NCBI GenBank assembly: GCA_951406725.2
Contig: OX597833.1
Coordinates: 37,758,001-37,822,000, forward strand
From: Octopus vulgaris
Lineage: Eukaryota
Direction: 5' to 3'
Length of the DNA: 64,000 bases
Made by a program: the position numbers and the translations under genes. This document shows, one piece after another, positions 3,425 through 64,000 of this stretch. Position 1 is the stretch's first letter; each line of letters starts with the position of its first letter. The notes beneath the pieces were generated by a model that saw only the letters and a program-made list of their open reading frames with translations, searched no databases and was not told the DNA's origin.

Positions 3425-3746
3425 GATCTTGTCAAACTGTCCAACCCGATCTTGTCAAACTGTCCAACTCAATCTTGTCAAACTGTCCAACCTGATCTTG
3501 TCAAACTGTCCAACCTGATCTTGTCAAACTGTCTAACCCGATCTTGTCAAACTGTCCAACCCGATCTTGTCAAACTGTCCAACCTGATCTTGTCAAACTG
3601 TCCAACCTGATCTTGTCAAACTGTCCAACCTGATCTTGTCAAACTGTCCAACCTGATCTTGTCAAACTGTCTAACCCGATCTTGTCAAACTGTCCAACCC
3701 GATCTTGTCAAACTGTCCAACCTGATCTTGTCAAACTGTCCAACCC
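3425..3746 (+). repeat. 23-bp minisatellite, 14 copies (gatcttgtcaaactgtccaaccY)
   Basis: Counted directly. It lies inside the 3' part of a SINE. Confidence 0.95.
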
Positions 3747-7698: not shown

Positions 7699-8189
7699 CT
7701 GAAACAGATCACAGGAAATAAAAATACTAAATAAATGAGATTTGCTTGGTTGAAATTCATAACATACTCCAATATCAACATATTCTGACAAAATTTTTAA
7801 AAAAAGAAGAAAAAACCCCAGAAATTTATTCTATGTGGCATGACAACAGTTAAAGTAAAACTTGGAGGAAAATAACAGATGCAAGAATCTAGCAAATTAA
7901 AACACAGAGATCCCTGAAACGAGGAAAAATAAAGTCCCATTGCTGCCAACATTACAAACACCACAAATGTAAAATCATAAACAAGTGCTCAAGACTACTA
8001 CACCTACTTCTACACACCCGCAAACCAAGACAAAGAAGGAGTCTACTCCCAGTTGCCAGAGAAAAGCAAGTTTATCCTGAATGCTCTTCCTCCCAAACCA
8101 ACATCAACTGCAGTGACATGGAGAAAGAAGAGCTGAACAATCAATGGATCACAGTGACAAAAGAGGGTAGTGACAGGAGCAAACTTAAT

Positions 8190-9725
8190 TTCGTACCTAG
8201 GCAGCTTACAAGGCTCTTGGTGACAGATATGAGATACTGCGAAAAGCCAACCACAGCCTCTGAAATACAGGAGGCGATGAGCGATTGCACAAGTCGCAAA
8301 TCACTCAGTTTGGATGGTTTGCCCTGTGAATTCTATGTTTTCATGCCAGATTTGTTTGGCAATCTCTTGGCAGATGTCTACAGTAACTGGCAGCAGAACG
8401 GGAGAATTTCTACCGCTGTTAGGTAGGGTGTGGTAACACTGCTGAGAAAGGATGCTGACAATGGGGATGTGCTACAGGCCATAACTCTGCTAAACACAGA
8501 GTTTAAGATTTTGATCAAGGTGTTAGCACAAAGGTCAGTGCTTGTTGTTGGTAGTCTGGTCAGGGATGAACAAACGTGCGCAATGCCAACTAGGTCTATC
8601 AACAACAACCTCTACCTAATGCGATACATCATAGAGAGGGTTGGGACTAAAGCAAGCTACGGTGGGGCCCTGATCAATTTAGATCAGTCGGAAGCTTTTG
8701 ATGGGGTAGACCATTGCTACTTGGAAGCTGTCCTTAAAGTGACTGGTTTTGGACCTGTTTTCAGAGGCTGGATTGCTGCAATGCACAACAGCACCTGCTC
8801 GGTGGTCAAAGTAAATGGCCATCTATTGGAACTGTTTAGTATTGCACATTCAGTCCATCAGGGCTGCCCGCAGTCACCTCTCCTGTATGTGCTGGTTCTC
8901 GAGCCACTACTATGGACATTGGAACAGTTAAGAGGCTTCTTTTGAAATTGAACTTGGGAGGGCAGTGTCTGCATATGCAGACAATATCACCATCATAGTG
9001 TTGGATGCCTCCAAAGTGGAGATGGTCAGCCCCATTGCAAAGGAATATGAGTCTCTTGCAGGGGCTAAAACCAATGCCAACAAGTTGGTGGGTTTGTGAC
9101 TGGGCACCTGAAGAGGCAGATTGATGTTGTCGGACACTGGACTGGCAGACCAGTTTAACAGTTCAGGGTCTGGTTTGGTCCCGACCTCCAGGTGGATAGG
9201 ACTTGGGAAGTGATGATGAACAGGGTGACCTCTCTTACACAGAAATAGGTAGAGGGGAAGTTGTCCCTAAAGGTCGAGCAGAATGGCAAATGCCTACACT
9301 GCCTCTGTCATTATTTATCATCTGACCGTCATGCCTTGCCCTAATTACTGCTCGATTAGATTGGAGTGTATCTTGTTTATTTTCTTGTAGAAGGGACATG
9401 TTCCAATGGTCAGGCGGTTGGTCTGCTGCCAACTTCCTTTGCATGGCAGCTTAGTAATACCATGGCTTTTAATGCGCAGACACACACTCAGGTTGCACCA
9501 CCTACATTGATTTTTAGAAGGTGAACATGTGTGGGCACCATTTGTGAGACACGCTTTTCTGCAGCTCGTCTCCTTGACGAAGTTGCAGTCCTGGGTAGAG
9601 GATAGGCCAACACTGGGCACCTGGCACTTAGAATGTCATCAGGTGCTCACTGTCCTCTACAAGTTGGGCAATAGGATGGGTGGATGTTCCACTTTAGATA
9701 TTTACAGAGGATTAGTAGTGGAGAA
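8190..9725 (+). mobile_element. Decayed L1/Tx1-clade LINE ORF2 (reverse transcriptase) fragment
   Basis: Motifs SLDGLPCEFY, ITLLNTEFKIL, LDQSEAFDGVDH, QGCPQSPLLY and AYADNIT (YADD). Stops and frameshifts throughout. Confidence 0.9.
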
Positions 9726-10151
9726 CTTTATATTTAGCAATGGGTCAACTCCAAGTAAAAGTAAAAGTATGAAAACAACTATACTTCAAAAAGGATTGTC
9801 CTTTTGCCTGAGGAATTTATCCCAGAAAGAGATTGCAGTGATAGGAATAGAGATAAGAAAGGAGTTGGAAACCACCAAGGCAGGAACAAATATAAAAAAG
9901 AGCCTCTTAAGAACAACACATATGCTACAGAGGGTGGGAGAAGCAAAGTTAAACACAGCAGACTTTGAATTAAGCACATGGAGAGATGAGACTAGATGCT
10001 TAGAGCATTTAGTCTGGTGCTCTGTCAACTTACCACTTTTGTAAAATTGCTCTTTTTTTTTTAACAAGTTTGGAATGGTGTTATTAACAGAAAAATAAGC
10101 TTCTGCAAAAAAAAAATAATAAATAAATAAAACAGAAATTTAAAAAAGTAC

Positions 10152-11340: not shown

Positions 11341-11830
11341 CATCATCATCATCATCATCATTTAGCGTCCGCTTTCCATGCTAGCATGGGTTGGACGGGT
11401 CAACTGGGGTCTGTGAAGCTGGAAGGCTTCGTCAGGCCCAGTCAGATCTGGCAGTGTTTCTACGGCTGGATGCCCTTCCTAACGCCAACCACTCCGCGAG
11501 TGTAGTGGGTGTTTTTTACGTGCCACCTACACAGGTGCCAGACAGAGCTGGCGAACGGCCACGAACGGATGGTGCTTTTACGTGTCACCGGCACGGGGCC
11601 AGGCGATGCTGGCAACGGACACGAACGGATGGTGCTTTTACGTGCCACTGACACGGGGCCAGACAGAGCTGGCAAACGGCCACGAACGGACGGTGCTTTT
11701 ATGTGTCACCGGCACGGGGGCCAGCCAAGGCTGACAACGAACACGAACGGATGGTGCTTTTACGTGCCACCGACATGGGGCCAGACAGAGCTGGCAAACG
11801 GCCACGAACGGACGGTGCTTTTACGTGTCT
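11341..11830 (-). mobile_element. SINE with ggcgttaggaagggcatccagc (Meta-domain-like) core and (GAT)n tail, with an internal ~60-bp tandem array
   Basis: Same family at ~2450-2610, 3280-3790, 6105-6560, 12920-13115, 41455-41790, 50398-50565 and 55190-55650. Confidence 0.75.
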
Positions 11831-14411: not shown

Positions 14412-15382
14412 CTGTAGGAGCAATGGAAGATTTCATAAGGTGAAAAATTGAACATATGTATGAATATATATGTACACATACACATGTGTGTGTGTATGTG
14501 CTTTTGCGTCTGTGCTTGTCCCCATATATACTGAGTGGAGGCGCATGTCTTAGTGGTTAGGATATCGGACTCATGAATGTAAGATTGTAGTTTCGATTTC
14601 CCAACTGGGCAACACATTGTCTTCTTGAGCTTCATTTCACATTGCGGCAGTCTATTCAGCTGTTGAAAATGAGTAATACTGTGATAGACTGGCGTCCCAT
14701 TCAGGTTGGGAATATATATGCTGTGAAACCGGGAAACTGGCCTTTATAAGTTGGCATGACTTGAGAGGGTAACTAGCTTTACCATACATACTGAGAGGTT
14801 GACTCAGTTCTACATTACCTACTATCATAGATACAGATGCATAGAGTCAGACTCTGACTCCATACATGTGAAGACATGCCAACAAAACTTTGAGTAATGA
14901 GCTGAATGAACCTGTAATTAAATACTTAAACTCTAACTACACATGTTGAGTGCTACTTTCTTTCATGTATATAAATTTATTTATTTAGATAGAAAAATAA
15001 TTATACAAATAAGGATACACATCACAGAATGACAAAATGGAACAAGCAGAACAAGAAGAATCACATGGGATAAAGTCATTGAATAAATCACAGAATGTGT
15101 AGTGAAAGAACTTTGACAAAGAAGCGAAAATAATAGTAATAAAGCTGAAGGGAAGAACAAATATATAATATATAATGCATGTGTTTAATTGACAAAGTGT
15201 GACCTTCGCCAAGTATAACAATATCTGTTTCAATACACTATTTTACATCAAGAATTTTACAACACAAATACATTAACATATATGTGTGTGTGTGTGTGTA
15301 TACACACACATACATATATAAATATATATATATACACATACATTTACTGATATATATATACACACATACATACATTTATATG

Positions 15383-15413
<31 letters not shown>

Positions 15414-15562
15414 CTGGAGTAAACACATAAATGTGAAACAAGGTGGAAAAAAGAGAACTCAAATACCAGAGGTAGAGTAATATGCTTTATTTAAAAGCAG
15501 CAGAAATTTAACAAAAGCTGTTACTCGGAGTTTCACGTTCCCGTTCGTCGGACAGTTTTTAA

Positions 15563-15606
<44 letters not shown>

Positions 15607-15768
15607 TTTATTGATAAGCTGCAAAAACATCACAAAAACTGTTTTTCAGAGCTTCATGTTCCCGAGTGCGATGTTTTTAAAGCTTTATTAATAAAGCATA
15701 TTACTCTACCTCTGGTATTCGAGTACTATTTTTTTACAACTTGTTTCACATTTATGTGCTTACTCTGG
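15414..15768. mobile_element. Small inverted element carrying the hammerhead (Penelope pLTR or retrozyme-like), embedded in (TA)n
   Basis: Arms 15414-15491 and 15690-15768 are reverse complements. 15606-15664 is a degenerate direct copy of 15485-15543. AATAAA follows the ribozyme. (TA)n lies on both flanks and in the centre. Confidence 0.6.
15513..15560 (-). ncRNA. Minimal type I hammerhead ribozyme motif (U4C core variant)
   Basis: Minus strand reads AAAAACTGT-CCGACGA-ACG GGAA CGT-GAA-ACTC C GAGT-A-ACAGCTTTT. This gives stem I (8/9 bp), core C(C)GANGA, a 3-bp stem II with tetraloop, GAAA, a near-palindromic stem III and a GUA cleavage triplet. Confidence 0.75.
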
Positions 15769-15858
15769 TATATATATATATAAGCACACACACACACATA
15801 CAGATATGGTATATAGAACAATAAATGGTATACACATAGAAACTGAAGTGTCACAAAC

Positions 15859-15978: not shown

Positions 15979-17937
15979 CTACAGTTAAGTAGTAATAAAG
16001 TAGAAATAATTAACTTTTACAGTTCTCCACTCACTGACTCTATTCTGTTGGATGGATGTATGTATCTGTATACTGACTCAGCTCTATGTTCGCTAAGCTG
16101 CTTATTGTCCTCTGTGTATTTGTATATGATACAGCTAACATGATTTTTGCCAAAACATGTGTCAGACACCAAAAGTATATTTGGTCTTTTTAGTCCAAAC
16201 AATAACAGACTGAAATCCAATCTGTTGGATGGTAGAATTGGAAGAGTACTAGACAAAATACTTTGTGATATTTGGCTGCGTCTCTTTACATTCTGATTTC
16301 AGATCTTGCTTTCACTTTTCAGAGATCAATAAAAAATAAAGCAGTCAGGCTCACAATCATGAGGTAGTGAGTTTGATTCCTGAACCAGGCAGTGTGTTGT
16401 GTTCTTCAGCAAGACACTTTATTTCATATTGCTTCAGTTCTCTCAGTTGTAGAAATGAGCTGCAACATCACTGGTGCCAAGCTGTATGGGCCTTTGCCTT
16501 TCCCTTGGATAAGATCAGTGATGTGGAGAGGGTAGGCTGATATGCAAGGGTAACTGCTGGTCTTCCATAAACAAACTTGCCTGGACTTGTGCCTCAGAGA
16601 GGAACATTTTTGGTGTCATCCCATGTTCAGTCATGATTGAAGGGGGTCTTAACGCTTTACCCTAATTGATAAAATAAGCACTGGGATTAGTATAATTGAT
16701 TATACCCTAGAAGGGTGTGCCTCAGCTAGGCCACTGTCCAATGAATGAAACTATTTAAGAATAAAAATATATTGCATATTGCAGTTAAACTCTTGAGGTG
16801 ATCAGCCTTAACCGTCTTCCCTTTCTAGGACAAAAACATTGGGCTAACAGATTAGCTTAGTTATCTTGTAAGGGTCAAAAATTTAAGAAGCATAGAGTGG
16901 AGTAACTGTAAAATATTTTGTTAGTGTGCCTACATGACATTTACTTATTTCTGATTTGTTGAGTAACAAAACCCACTTTCCATTATTCCATTGTGTGGAG
17001 CTCATTAACAATAGGTTCCAATCAAAAACTTATCTAAACATGCCCATTGCTAAGGTAGGACACTACCCCTCACTATTCAATGGTGCACTCTCAAATTTAG
17101 AAAGTACAGTTTACAAAAATATTCCTGCAATATAAATTAGTGCCCACCCAGAATATTCTGAAGCACCCCCAGGCACCAAAGTCAGATAATGGGCCTGTAT
17201 CTAAAGCTTCAATGTCATTTCCATATATGGACATATTAGAATGTACAAATTTGAGTTAGTTGAGTAAAATTACTCATGAAACCTCATTTTCTTTGCCTAA
17301 ATAAATACATTATATTCATAGCTAAATCAGAAGGACATGCCCATAACATTTTCCTAAAAATCTGAGACTGATGGGAGAAAGTTAACTCCACAACTAGTGG
17401 TCTGGCTCAAATGCTCACAACAGAATGGCCTTTGTTAAATGTACCCAAAGGTTAGGTGGAAATGTTAAACTGGGCAATAGATCAAATATAATCCAATAAC
17501 AGAAACCCTCCTTCTGACAGACATCCATATGCCTTCATTCACAAGACTTTAATTTTATCCAAGTCTGTAACACAAGACACTTGCCCCCAAAGTGCTGTGC
17601 AGAAAAACTAAACCTGCCACTATTTAAATGCAAAATAGATTTTTTTAACCACATGGTTTTGCTTGCATCCATATACAGACATATTAAAGTGTACAAATTT
17701 GTGTTAATTGGGTAAGATTTGCAAGATTTCTATTTGCTTAGTTCTAGGAGGAGGTTTCCTATTCTCTATTTTAGGTTAGAATAACTGGTCATTTCTGTAA
17801 TAGTTGGTTTGAGTGAATTGGCTTGTAATTCATCTAACTGGACAATTATTACAACTGGTCACAATAACAAGGTTAGTTTCTTTTAATCCTAAGAAGCCAA
17901 CAAATGTGTCACTAAACCAACCAAACTCCAATCTTAC

Positions 17938-41372: not shown

Positions 41373-41799
41373 TGTATGTATACGTATGGTGAGTGTGGGT
41401 GTATTTGTGCAGTTATATAAACTTTGTGATTCTATTTATTCTGCCGTTAACTATTCTCATCATCATCATCATCATCCACATTTAACATCTGTTATTCCAT
41501 GTTGGTATGGGTTGTATGGCTTGACAAAAACTGGCATAATCTGTTTTGGCTTGGTTCCTGTGGCTGGATGCCCTTCCTAATGCCAACAACTTTACAGAGT
41601 GTACTTGGTGTTTTTTTTACATGGCACCATCACCAGTGCTTTTTACATGGCACCAGCACCAGTGTTTTTTATGTGGCACCAGCACCCACACCAATGCTTT
41701 TTACATGGCACATTGGTTTTAGGATCTCAATTCTGTTGTGGTGGGCAGATCTTCTTGAGTACAGCAATGCGTCACGTATCTCAGTCAATTTCTAACATA

Positions 41800-51789: not shown

Positions 51790-52520
51790 GAAGATAAAAT
51801 ATAGGCATATAGCAGAGTAATTGGGTTAAGAGGTTGGGTAGTGTAAGTTGAACATGGGGCTGTTAATACTGGACATCAGTATAAGCTGAGTAATTCAAAT
51901 ATGATGTATAGTTCAGTGAATTAATACAAGGTGTATAACTGTCTAAGCTGGAAATGGTATAATAGATGTGTAAATTGTGTAAGTTTCACACAGAGTATAA
52001 CAGTGTAAGCTGGATACTGTGAATAGCTATATAAGTTGGACATGGTGTGTAGTAGTGCTAGTTGGACCTGATGCGTAGCTGGGTAAATCAGGACATGGTA
52101 CATAACTAAGTAAAATGAGCATGGTGTATAATTGTGCAAATTAGGACATGGTGTATAACTATGTAAGTCAGGTATGGTATACAGCTGTGTAAATTTAGGC
52201 ATGATGTATAGTTGTGTAAACAAGGCATGATGTGTAACTGTGTAAAAGGAGACAGTGTATAGTTGTGTAAATTAGGACATGGTATATAGCTGTACATTGA
52301 GAGATGGTGTATAATTGTGCAAGTTGGACATGGTGTATAGCTGGGTAAGCTGTTGCAGTGGTGTAATCCAAACAACACATATAGCAATGATGAAGGTTGA
52401 ACAATATATAACATCTGTGTATCTAAAGACAACACATATAGCAGGGCAGCTAAGTTAGAAAACATGTTGCAGCAGTGTAACTTGGAGTAACACATCTAGC
52501 AAGTGTGTAAGTTTATTAAA
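51790..52520. repeat. Old, diverged ~26-bp tandem repeat (consensus ~GTGTAAGTTGGACATGGTGTATAGCT)
   Basis: gtaa...ggacatggtgtata(g/a)(c/t)t recurs with a period of about 26 nt. Confidence 0.8.
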
Positions 52521-56727: not shown

Positions 56728-57104
56728 TATTTCTATATTGTGCAATACTATACACAGCTATTGATTCATGAGGAATCATTGACACAAATTGAAATTCAAC
56801 TCTTCAGTATCATGCATAAAAGTTATTCACTATAGATACTTGAATTATTGATAATTTATACCGACATTTGGTATAAATGTGTATTTACATGATTACATTT
56901 ACCTGTTACAGGCAGACCAAAATAAACCCTGACTTGAAGTGAACAGTCAAGAAGAAGGATGACTTTAAAAGATGGATAGAAAAATAAAAACCAGAAAAGA
57001 GAAAGGAAAGTTTTTGTTTTCAGACAATATAATAAATTAGAATTTTATTAGCAGTTTCTGTTCCAATTAAGCTATCGACTGGATTACCACAAATGCATTA
57101 AGGG

Positions 57105-57987
57105 AGTTCCCCAGTATCACTGTTAGTCACAACTTTTCCGTCAAGGATCTAGACTACACAGATGACATTGCGATACTTGGAGAAACATTTGCTGACGTCC
57201 AGTTTGCTATCAATGAGCTCCAGCATGTTGCATCGCAGATTGGTATGAAAGTCAATGCCTCGAAGACCAAAATCCTCACAGCCTGCTTTGCCCCACCAGA
57301 CAAAACACCCATTGTCCTCAATGGTGATATTCTTGAAGAGGTTGAGAGTTTCAAATACCTTGGCGCCATCATTACAGCTATAGGTCAAGGTGAGGCTGAC
57401 ATTAAAACACGAATCGACCTCGCTCACCAAGCCTTCAACCGACTTAGTGCACAACTCTGGTCAAGATCTGAGATCCAACGCACAACCAAAGTACGGATCT
57501 ACCAAGCACTAGTGCGAACGATTCTCCTTTATGGCAGCGAGTCATGGCCAATGAGGGTGGAAGATATTAAGCGACTAGAATCCTTCAATCACCTCTGTCT
57601 ATGTCGCATCCTTCATGTCTGATGGCATCACTTTGTCTCCAACAATTCGGTGCGACACCAGTGCAGAATCACCTCCCTCCGACAAGTCATCCTAACGAGA
57701 CGTCTGCATTGGCTGGGTCATGCCCTCCATCATCAACCAGGAGAATTCATCTACGAAGCAATTGCCCCAGCTCCCCTTCAGGGTTGGCAAAAGCGATGTG
57801 GTGGACAACGAGAAACCTGGCTGATGAGAGTCAAGGCTGCTCTGGAACCCAACCTAGGCCCCCATATCTACAGCGTTCGCTGCTGGAATAAGGAGTTTGG
57901 TCAGCGTTTGTGAGAGATGCAGCATTGAGGATGAATGAAGCCAGCTCAACCCACCCCGGGTGAATGCTGTCAAGTCAAGTCAAGTCC
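57105..57987 (+). mobile_element. 5'-truncated RTE-clade LINE 3' end
   Basis: Motifs DLDYTDDI, GMKVNASKTK, VESFKYLG, YQALVRTILLYGSESW and RRLHWLGH. (CAAGT)n tail at ~57969-57987. Confidence 0.9.
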
Positions 57988-58305: not shown

Positions 58306-59598
58306 CGAGGGACGTTCAATAAGTAATGCCTCTGACCCACTTGCAGTTGTTTGATCTAGCTGAAATTTTGCATGTGCAATCATTTATATCTCTATAGAGT
58401 AAGTGACAAATTACAGCTCTGAATTAATTGTGGTTTCTGATTTACAGGTGTTTGAACCGAGTCAAGTGTGAAATGGAGCCTGTTGAGTGTCGAGCAGTGA
58501 TCCGGTTTTTGTATTTGAAAGGACGCACACCACGGGAGACTTTTGATGAAATGAAAGTAACTTATGGTGATGATACCCCATCATATGACCTTGTAAAACG
58601 CTGACATCGTGAATTCAAACATGGTCGGAACTCTGTGGAAACAGCTCCCAGATCTGGTCGCCCCCTTCTGCCATTGATGAGGCATCTGTCCGTCAAGTTG
58701 AGGCTGCCATTTTGGAAGATTGACGCATAACTATTCGCCAAATAGCCCATGAGATCAAGATTAGTACCGGGTCTGTGGAAACTATCATTCATGACCATTT
58801 GCATATGCAAAAGGTGTCTGCCAGATGGATTCCCAGGTTGCTCACGCCTTTCCAGAAGCAAGAACGCGTTGAGTGCTCGAGGGGGGAATTTGGAGATGTG
58901 CCAAGAAGATGAGTCAAAATTTTTCAAAAGACTGATTACACAGGATGAAACCTGGGTCCATCACGATGATCCAGAGACCAAAGCCCAGTCAATGCAGTGG
59001 AAGCACCGTGACTCACCCCCTCCAAAAAAGGCAAGGGCGCAGCCCTCTGCTGGCAAGGTCATGCTCACAGTCTTCTGGGACCAGGACGGAGTAGTGATGA
59101 CAGATTTCCTGGCAAAGGGTACCACAATTGCAGGAGCCTATTATGCTTCACTTTTGAGGAAATTAAGAGAAGTTATCAAAATCAAGATGCGGGGCAAGAT
59201 CAGCAAAGGCATCCTCCTCCTGCAGGACAACGTTCCGGTCCACAACTCGCTTGTCGCCAGATCAGAAGCACAGGCGTATGGCTATGAACTCCTCCCCCAT
59301 CCCCCCTACTTTCCTGACCTTGCACGCTCTGATTTTCACCTCTTCCCAGTCATGAAGTTGTTTTTGAAAGGAAAGCGTTTCCCAGATGATGCAGCCTTGA
59401 TTTCTGAAGTCGCGTTCAGGTTGGAGGACCAAGCTGGGGTCTTCTACAAAAACGGTCTCCAGAGCTGCATCAAACAATGGGAGAAATGCGTAACTCTGGG
59501 TGGTTCATATGTAGAAAAAGACTAATAACTGTGCCAAGTTTCGTTGCTCTACTGCTATGGGAAGTGGGTCAGGGGCATTACTTATTGAACGCCCCTCG
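58306..59598 (+). mobile_element. Full-length mariner (DD34D) transposon, 1293 bp, inactivated
   Basis: 37-bp TIRs (cgagggacgttcaataagtaatgcctctgacccactt, 2 mismatches) and TA target duplication on both sides. Confidence 0.95.
58473..59525 (+). pseudogene. Mariner transposase pseudogene
   Basis: ATG at 58473 (MEPVECRAVIRFL). Motifs WIPRLL, TQDETW, QDN and YFPDLARSD with 34 aa between the last two Asp. Stops at 58602 and 58721. Compensating frameshifts at ~58665 and ~58885. Confidence 0.92.
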
Positions 59599-62999: not shown

Positions 63000-64000
63000 G
63001 TTGAAGGAAACAAGATTGGAGGCCATTTGAGGGTTCTGTTCATGGAGCTAGTACAGGCTAAATGTGAATGGTGCCTGTGTGTGTAAGCTTAGGGAGGAAT
63101 GAAGAGTGGTATCATCTGTATGGGAATGAGCATTGTTGGAGATGACAGAAAGTAGGTTACTAATGAACAGAAAGTAAAGTATGATATAACTTGGCCTTGG
63201 GACATACCACAATTGATAAAGAGTGGGTCAGATAAAGCTCCAGCAATTGCACAAGGCAATGATATAATCTAACAGAAAGCTTCCAGTCTAGGAGATGAGA
63301 GCTGGATGAGGTTCTTAGAGGGAAACCTAGCAAGAAAATCTCCATCAGAGACATGGTCAATTGCGTTGCTGATGTTAAGTACAACAACATTAGTTTTTCA
63401 AGGGTAAGGACTAACAGAAGACTATGTTTGTAATTATTACAAATAACATCATTATTACTGTAGTCAGAAGCATGCAAACCTGCATGGTTCTTGGCAGATC
63501 TATGAAAGACAATCTCCCTTTCTTACAACATTATATAGGAAGTGGATAATAAGCATGGCTTCAGAGTAGTCCTGATCCATGTAATCAGTTTTAAGCCTCC
63601 AAAAACAAAAAGGTTAACCATCAGTATTTGGTACAGCAGTCCTCAGAGCATCTGCATTTAGTTCCATTTTCTTGAGGTGGATCAATTTAAAATACAGTGA
63701 CAGATGCTAGGTGGTCTGACTAAATAGCCTCTTCATAGAGCCATTTCAAATTACATGTTTGGTTAATCTCTCCTGTATGTTTTAGCTCTTAGAACATTGC
63801 TGTGGAAAATAGAGATATTGAAGAGCATCCTGCTTGAACAGGGAATGGGAAAGTCATATCAGAATATGGGGACAATGTAACCATGATGGTGTTAGTTACC
63901 ACAGAAATCAAAGTGGTCAGTACTACACGTAGAGAGTATGAACTGGTACCAGGAAATGCATAAACTGAATCAAGTTGGTGGACTTGAACATAACACTTGT
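63000..64000 (-). mobile_element. Possible decayed LINE remnant (clade uncertain)
   Basis: Higher GC, coding-like but stop-ridden segment. No diagnostic motif was clearly recognised. Confidence 0.3.

Follow-up and report, generated by a model that had tools for sequence, protein, structure and literature searches.

Hammerhead-bearing, 5'-truncated repeat copies in a TA microsatellite of Octopus vulgaris, probably derived from a Hydra-type Penelope-like element

RESULTS

A TA-rich tract interrupted by three pieces of one repeat

The window analyzed here is a 64,000-nucleotide stretch of the Octopus vulgaris genome (assembly GCA_951406725.2, contig OX597833.1, positions 37,758,001 to 37,822,000). 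Within it, a TA-rich tract at 15310-15782 is interrupted by three pieces of a single repeat, designated L, R1, and R2 (Table 1). Read 5' to 3' on the minus strand, unit L consists of five A residues, stem I, the core, stem II, GAAA, stem III, and a cleavage A, followed by ACAG, a bulged base, TTTT, a spacer, AATAAA, and a 72-nt tail that extends to 15414 and there meets TA repeats. A preliminary description, made from the letters of this DNA, had proposed a unit running from a hammerhead through AATAAA and a tail of about 75 nt into (TA)n, and this unit is present on the minus strand at 15414-15563, with a tail of 72 nt. The absence of an ORF, also part of that description, was borne out by a tblastn search with 120 Hydra-type proteins, which gave no match in the window; the same search found in the window no reverse transcriptase (RT) or GIY-YIG ORF of a Penelope-like element (PLE) linked to the terminus. 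Beyond L, R1, and R2, there are no further copies of the repeat in the 64 kb. Other features of the window, including SINE-like repeats on either side of the locus, are listed in Table 1.

Table 1. Coordinates of the TA tract, the repeat pieces, and neighboring features in the window
Feature	Position	Strand	Basis or remark
Left target, TA-rich microsatellite	15310..15413	.	TRF; target-site duplication unreadable within (TA)n
Unit L, 5'-truncated copy resembling a pseudo-LTR (pLTR), subfamily 1, long 3' end	15414..15563	-	Starts 5-8 nt upstream of stem I
Optional 72-nt tail, the interval from short to long 3' end	15414..15485	-	Small bulged hairpin at 15478-15457
AATAAA (15491-15486) and short 3' end of the family (about 15480-15485)	15480..15491	-	26 X7 contigs enter TA repeats at 15480; R1 ends equivalently
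Stem I extension: bulge at 15517, then TTTT, predicted to pair with AAAA at 15559-15556	15513..15517	-	Other copies seem to pair further
Type I hammerhead motif, Hydra-PLE type	15518..15555	-	Descriptor match and comparison with File S2 of PMC8557442
(TA)21, separating the two insertions	15564..15605	.	TRF
R1, decayed half-hammerhead, subfamily 2, short 3' end	15606..15664	-	AATAAA at 15612-15607 directly into (TA)n
R2, inverted 5'-truncated copy, head-to-head with R1, long 3' end	15665..15768	+	AATAAA at 15690-15695; tail hairpin at 15703-15724
Right target, (TA)7	15769..15782	.	
Minisatellite arrays	3425-3746, 11514-11829, 41614-41711, 52019-52348		TRF periods 23 nt, 61/122, 26, and 26-27, respectively
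Decayed non-LTR retrotransposon, presumably of L1/Tx1 type	7893-8945 and 9511-10044	+	RVT_1, E 1.5e-10 for 8427-8942
SINE-like repeats flanking the locus	about 14535-14770 and 16330-16740		By eye
Reverse transcriptase fragment, which we take to be RTE-like	57071-57622	+	RVT_1, E 4e-07
Mariner transposase fragment	58746-59525	+	Transposase_1, E 3.9e-23; 88% identical to P0121

A type I hammerhead motif with C at core position 4

Stem I of the hammerhead in L has 4 bp, in which CTGT (15555-15552) pairs with ACAG (15521-15518). The core strand is CCGACGA (15551-15545), stem II comprises 3 bp closed by a GGAA loop (15544-15535), and GAAA occupies 15534-15531. The stem III strand (15531-15523) is 9 nt long and self-complementary, a 4-bp palindrome with a 1-nt loop at 15527; a GUA site places the predicted cut at 15522/15521, with A at the cleavage position, 15522. 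Position 4 of the core (15550) is C rather than U, a change (U4C) that the preliminary description had not recorded. All other elements of a type I hammerhead (three stems, core, GAAA, and UH) are present, above chance: a descriptor that admits C or U at position 4 gave one match in the window and one in total across 200 doublet-shuffled windows. A search of Rfam at the gathering score returned no match, and at E ≤ 10 it returned low-complexity matches and no hammerhead family. Free folding of 15563-15500 gave z = +1.3, so energy alone lends no support.

The hammerhead fold of the monomer is predicted at -2.7 kcal/mol, compared with -5.5 kcal/mol for the minimum-free-energy fold, and a self-duplex of the stem III strand is predicted at -7.8 kcal/mol, values as for a motif of the dimer type. 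By these models, the hammerhead of L should fold well only as a dimer, joined through its palindromic stem III. The U4C change is described as lowering activity considerably in vitro while still allowing viroid infectivity (PMC3088659); because it is known to lower activity, we predict a slow ribozyme, one likely slowed by U4C itself.

R1 and R2 form a head-to-head pair

R1 has the same orientation as L, as the preliminary description had it for a tandem partial hammerhead at 15606-15664, but it is only 78% identical to L (46 of 59 nt), belongs to another subfamily, and is catalytically dead; a tandem pLTR pair finds no support. R1 lacks the CUGANGA half of the core, reads GAAG for GAAA (15655-15652), and has a broken stem III and a changed U16.1; with these defects, it offers no working partner. 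We considered R1 as a dimer or permuted partner of L and rejected it on the changed GAAA, stem III, and U16.1. The pairing described earlier for a stem I strand does exist, in that ACAGTTTTT of R1 (15642-15634) is complementary to AAAAACTGT, but the letter at 15517 merely varies among copies.

R2 matches the tail of L in inverted orientation, with 89% identity over 84 nt. The inverted repeat of the tail placed at 15690-15768 is thus real, but it starts near 15665-15667 and not at 15690. Aligned with R1, R2 matches at 25 of 30 letters, and it begins inside the region of the stem I 3' strand. The two pieces constitute an inverted 5'-truncated copy joined head-to-head, with a tail on one arm only, and the likeliest reading of R1 is as the arm with the short end in a head-to-head insertion separate from L.

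The repeat is abundant and ends in TA repeats

Contigs matching the unit numbered 11,009 in sequencing run X1, 5,635 in X7, 638 in X14, and 175 in X16. The unit was found in 23 of the 24 runs listed, 18 of them with half of its words or more, and these runs come from five coded organisms (A to E); matches from an insect metagenome had a low share (0.2) and were given no weight. Summed depth divided by the median depth of single contigs put the copies at about 26,000 to 63,000 (X1) and 32,000 (X7), figures to be read as orders of magnitude and not as true copy numbers. With thousands of contigs in each large run, the repeat is multicopy, as had been proposed, and a single-copy sequence is excluded.

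Differences reaching 5% or more occur at 15 places across X1, X7, X14, and X16. Those in the hammerhead fall at the stem III loop base (15527), at a stem I position where the change is compatible with a wobble pair (15519), and, in one run, at the cleavage base (15522). The core, including 15550, shows none at this level in the four runs, which makes a repeat lacking a ribozyme core unlikely. A separate record likewise carries C at position 4. C4 therefore looks like the family-wide state in these sequences, with the qualification that mismatches close to contig ends are unlisted and that free positions such as N7 are as invariant as the core, so that the invariance is no proof of selection. 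In X16, T>C changes on the plus strand (A>G on the hammerhead strand) reach 16% of depth at 15522, the cleavage base, and 33% at 15473; the same changes stand at about 0.2% in X1 and X7, with none of note in X14. A-to-I editing could explain them, as could a small number of expressed variant loci from another species. The RNA status of X14 and X16 is a guess, and expression read from them is putative. In these two runs the depth of the tail exceeds that of the hammerhead, an observation that we left unused since contig depth cannot rank parts.

The family has two 3' ends. At the long one, loose ends at 15416-15417 enter TA repeats in all four runs (among 24 of the 426 loose ends); the short one is that of the 26 X7 contigs in Table 1. 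The proposed targeting of (TA)n holds, in that 3' ends run into TA repeats in four of four runs. Loose ends at 15491 (68 X7 and 10 X14 contigs) match R1, which identifies R1 as a member of a second subfamily. The arrangement is one by which PLEs are recognized, a pLTR with a hammerhead and an optional 3' tail at one end: the short end occurs in R1 and in X7, and the long end in L, in R2, and in the four runs.

Upstream of stem I, there are at least three sequence variants. Their initial letters complement the variants seen on the 3' side of stem I, which suggests that pairing of an extended stem I is kept across them. Beyond the extended stem, the copies have 20 to 30 nt of loosely common T-rich sequence (agreement, 0.48 to 0.73). 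Since copies continue upstream of stem I, L itself is 5' truncated. The joints between pieces (15 of 20) comprised 11 strand inversions, 4 skips, and no head-to-tail junction, and the break points of the inversions varied, from 15483-15516 to 15548-15562.

Comparison with Hydra-clade Penelope-like elements

According to File S2 of PMC8557442, stem III has 4 bp and a 1-nt loop in 16 of 25 Hydra families, 5 of the 25 having ACTC-N-GAGT; a (TA)n target is given for 26 of 27 Hydra families in the same source, and its Hydra-2_aJap motif has 19 consecutive letters in common with that of the window. The window repeat, too, combines a (TA)n target with a Hydra-type hammerhead, two marks of the Hydra clade. 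Position 4 sets it apart, being U in 25 of 25 published Hydra motifs (PMC8557442) and in 142 of 142 motifs of a comparison set that we assembled from at least 120 metagenome loci and 3 loci of a genome collection (L001 to L123). The scan pattern for this set was built from the common motif, so that the hammerhead match between it and the window is partly circular. By eye, one of its two main families matches the published end of Hydra-2_Amil (PMC8557442).

The comparison loci, taken as listed, share the layout of the window repeat. Their 3' ends are bimodal, 69 of 98 lying 20 to 40 nt and 26 of 98 at least 90 nt past the motif (distinct flanks); the long 3' end in the window lies 104 nt past it. 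Ninety of 115 pieces start within -12 to +1 of stem I, with a gap further upstream, where the 115 are taken from 162 pieces by omitting those at contig ends and those reaching beyond the 57-nt reference, which undercounts long copies. None of the 115 starts at the cut site, a weak observation in loci chosen for an intact hammerhead. The pile-up of 5' ends could reflect a stop in copying, the start of a transcript, or AT microhomology. Neighboring pieces are head-to-head in 38 cases and tandem in 1, and where both motifs of a pair are intact, one end is mostly short and the other long. The loci include two oddities. L020 has a head-to-head hammerhead pair around which the two strands are identical, as are the ORFs in the two directions, and it is probably a fold-back assembly artifact. 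L121 to L123 are contigs filed in a bacterial metagenome-assembled genome that carry animal-type PLEs, among them a Hydra-type ORF, and are likely host DNA in a bacterial bin; L123:1-1347 holds a second PLE-like ORF, with RT and nuclease, of another type.

A Hydra-type ORF end precedes 11 of the 84 motifs that have at least 250 nt of upstream sequence (loci as listed) and is missing from the other 73. The ORF of one locus has relatives of about 700 amino acids; of 120, 117 have DKT, 117 have CxCX5C, and 72 have RWK, counts that describe relatives of the comparison loci and not the window family. The match of this ORF to GIY-YIG is weak (E 0.001, below the cut-off). An ORF-bearing Hydra family thus leaves mostly ORF-less stubs, and the step taken earlier from the lack of an ORF to a nonautonomous family does not follow. 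The relation to Penelope suggested in the preliminary description is upheld by the Hydra-type stem III, the (TA)n target, the inverted truncated copy, and the two 3' ends.

Outside the hammerhead, BLASTN found no significant similarity between the window and the comparison loci. The window motifs had no match in the searched supplements of PMC8557442 and PMC13282606, the tail pattern none in metagenome contigs, and the hammerhead patterns none in viral contigs. Hydra-1_Obim of Octopus bimaculoides was considered as a partner and rejected, its hammerhead and 3' end (PMC8557442) being different by eye.

The window tail, at 72 nt, is longer than the 30 to 40 nt quoted for PLEs and equals the tail of the comparison loci. 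Its hairpin resembles the Hydra comparison tails by eye, a likeness that is suggestive only of homology. Built from 11 hairpins of the comparison tails, a covariance model missed the window tails, which scored 10.0 and 2.3 bits locally. In a position-weight model designed post hoc, they ranked second and third of 12,264 scored sites, below one unrelated site. That top site (63912-63935, minus strand) has no hammerhead nearby and is taken as chance. A regular expression fitted to the tail matched twice in the window and never in 200 shuffles, a result not counted as a test.

DISCUSSION

Two probable insertions of a Hydra-type element

With moderate confidence, we read the locus as two separate 5'-truncated insertions of the 3' end (pLTR) of a Hydra-type PLE into one TA microsatellite, the repeat being one of very high copy number. 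The full RNA of the element probably served as template; a dedicated short RNA is a distinctly weaker candidate for that role. By analogy with published PLE biochemistry (PMC11167929), cutting of TA-rich DNA would be the work of a PLE protein with RT and GIY-YIG nuclease, and reverse transcription of the element RNA may be primed at one or the other of two internal positions, yielding a short or a long (tailed) 3' end. Copying would mostly stop at or just beyond the hammerhead, and where both ends of the target are used, a head-to-head pair with a tail on a single arm would result, as at 15606-15768. R would then represent a single head-to-head insertion, one arm short and the other long, of sufficient age for the two to have diverged, and L a second, separate event, of the other subfamily (78% identical), in the same tract.

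Heavy 5' truncation is described for PLE insertions, frequently beside an inverted copy, and so is a tail confined to one end (PMC8557442, PMC3846280). The Poseidon protein cuts AT-rich DNA in vitro and starts reverse transcription at two internal sites, the interval between which is the tail (PMC11167929). In the same work, hammerhead mutants leave insertion in vitro unblocked, and cleavage needs help from protein. We predict that the hammerhead is needless for insertion here, and the lone L copy beside the dead R1 is probably inert and silent. What speaks against the two insertions being stubs of a full element is that no ORF-bearing copy of the window family was seen in the window or in the short contigs.

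That point leads to the nearest competitor, which we consider possible but clearly less probable: a dedicated nonautonomous mini-element, a SINE-like PLE derivative somewhat longer than 150 nt, with its own transcript and a Hydra-type enzyme acting in trans, the chemistry of insertion being the same as for a full element. In its favor are a copy number on the order of 10^4 and the published octopus Hydra-1, whose hammerhead and 3' end are not those of the window repeat. The common T-rich sequence upstream of stem I is short (about 20 to 30 nt; agreement, 0.48 to 0.73), U4C and the 3-bp stem II suggest a relaxed ribozyme, and both nonautonomous PLE derivatives and trans-mobilization by pLTRs are on record (PMC8557442, PMC3846280, bioRxiv 10.64898/2026.07.22.740005). 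However, an ORF-bearing Hydra family yields the same stubs (73 of 84 comparison motifs), the consensus of the loose ends spans at most 30 letters, so that a longer common body is possible, and O. vulgaris has 190 PLE consensus families making up 6.83% of the genome (PMC13282606), any of which is a possible source.

A bolder version, to which we assign a low probability, would make the family a noncoding parasite of Hydra PLEs, spread through several related species in copy numbers of tens of thousands, with U4C fixed and an extended stem I kept paired across subfamilies. Its ribozyme fold would be kept as a stop or handle for RT and not as scissors; the pile-up of 5' ends at stem I rather than at the cut site is what would suggest this role.

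A retrozyme, which the preliminary description named as one of two candidates, is very unlikely. In a non-LTR retrozyme, tandem hammerhead repeats give unit-length RNAs that are circularized and reinserted, and the type I hammerhead, the short unit, the lack of an ORF, and the contigs of the two putative RNA runs that cover the unit would all suit it; retrozyme families can also consist mainly of monomers and derive from PLE pLTRs (bioRxiv 10.64898/2026.07.22.740005). Yet the defining feature of retrozymes is tandem units that each have a complete hammerhead (bioRxiv 10.64898/2026.07.22.740005, PMC7229834), and the window contains one complete motif, whose core has U4C, beside a second copy that is dead and belongs to a different subfamily. 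In four of four runs the 3' ends lie directly against TA, and the joints from these short contigs (15 of 20) include 11 inversions and none that is head-to-tail.

That 15414-15768 is a MITE-like DNA transposon, with the tails as terminal inverted repeats of about 85 nt and a TA duplication, is the least likely reading: its outer ends are indeed inverted (89% over 84 nt) and flanked by TA, but the inversion break points vary between copies, a tail-less short end exists, four runs show no change of the hammerhead core at the 5% level, a known PLE family (the comparison loci) gives rise to the same pseudo-MITE form, and fixed inverted repeats with a fixed target duplication were not found, the duplication being unreadable in (TA)n.

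The locus itself is an ordinary repeat, probably inert. Hammerheads are near universal in canonical PLEs, weak in vitro, and dispensable for insertion in one reconstituted system (PMC8557442, PMC4209133, PMC11167929). A U4C family of about 10^4 copies would offer a cheap natural test of their role in PLEs, C4 against U4 and monomer against dimer; if the noncoding parasite were real, the family would be a natural test of why PLEs carry hammerheads at all. The clustering of 5' starts just ahead of stem I, measured in the related family, suggests that copying is limited either by the hammerhead fold or by where the transcript starts. Annotation may mislabel stubs of this sort, which look like MITEs or retrozymes.

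Relation to known systems

An inverted, pLTR-type architecture is already published (PMC8557442, PMC3846280, PMC4209133), and 235 hammerhead 1 loci are reported for the giant squid (PMC6962438); the available text of PMC7229834 mentions neither octopus nor cephalopods. Our literature search found no account of the window family or of a U4C PLE hammerhead, with the reservation that Repbase, Dfam, the O. vulgaris library (Zenodo 10.5281/zenodo.19138903), or Lunse et al. 2017 may list either. Novelty thus extends at most to the family and its C4 core, the arrangement being known.

Animal non-LTR retrozymes (PMC7229834; bioRxiv 10.64898/2026.07.22.740005) resemble the window repeat in being short, noncoding, and PLE related, with a type I hammerhead. 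They differ from it in that neither the window nor the joints have tandem intact units, and in its microsatellite ends and head-to-head inversions. The hammerheads described in PMC4209133 and attributed there to truncated PLEs resemble it too: they occur as thousands of dispersed single motifs and as opposite-strand pairs, have a palindromic stem III, and combine predicted activity as dimers with low cleavage. In contrast to those motifs, the window motif has a stem III of 4 bp, not a minimal one, and a short stem II, and the core variant described there is U3-A8, not U4C. Poseidon of the green anole, studied in vitro (Frangieh et al. 2024, PMC11167929), has two 3' ends with the tail between them, AT-rich targets, and a pLTR hammerhead, as in the window; it belongs to another clade, its pLTR overlaps the start of the ORF, and its tail measures 30 to 40 nt, so the mechanism is carried over from it by analogy.

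The Hydra PLEs described in 2021 (PMC8557442), especially Hydra-2_Amil and Hydra-2_Ajap, are a further close match. The window repeat differs from these PLEs in C4, in the 3-bp stem II, and in having AATAAA at its short end; ORF-bearing copies were not observed on its side, and similarity outside the hammerhead is not significant. The window family is also distinct from Hydra-1_Obim. What it has in common with the Hydra PLEs is a hammerhead near the 3' end, ACTC-N-GAGT, a CTGT/ACAG stem I, a (TA)n target, and an inverted 5'-truncated copy, and with the motif-bearing comparison loci it shares short and long ends at similar distances and 5' starts at stem I.
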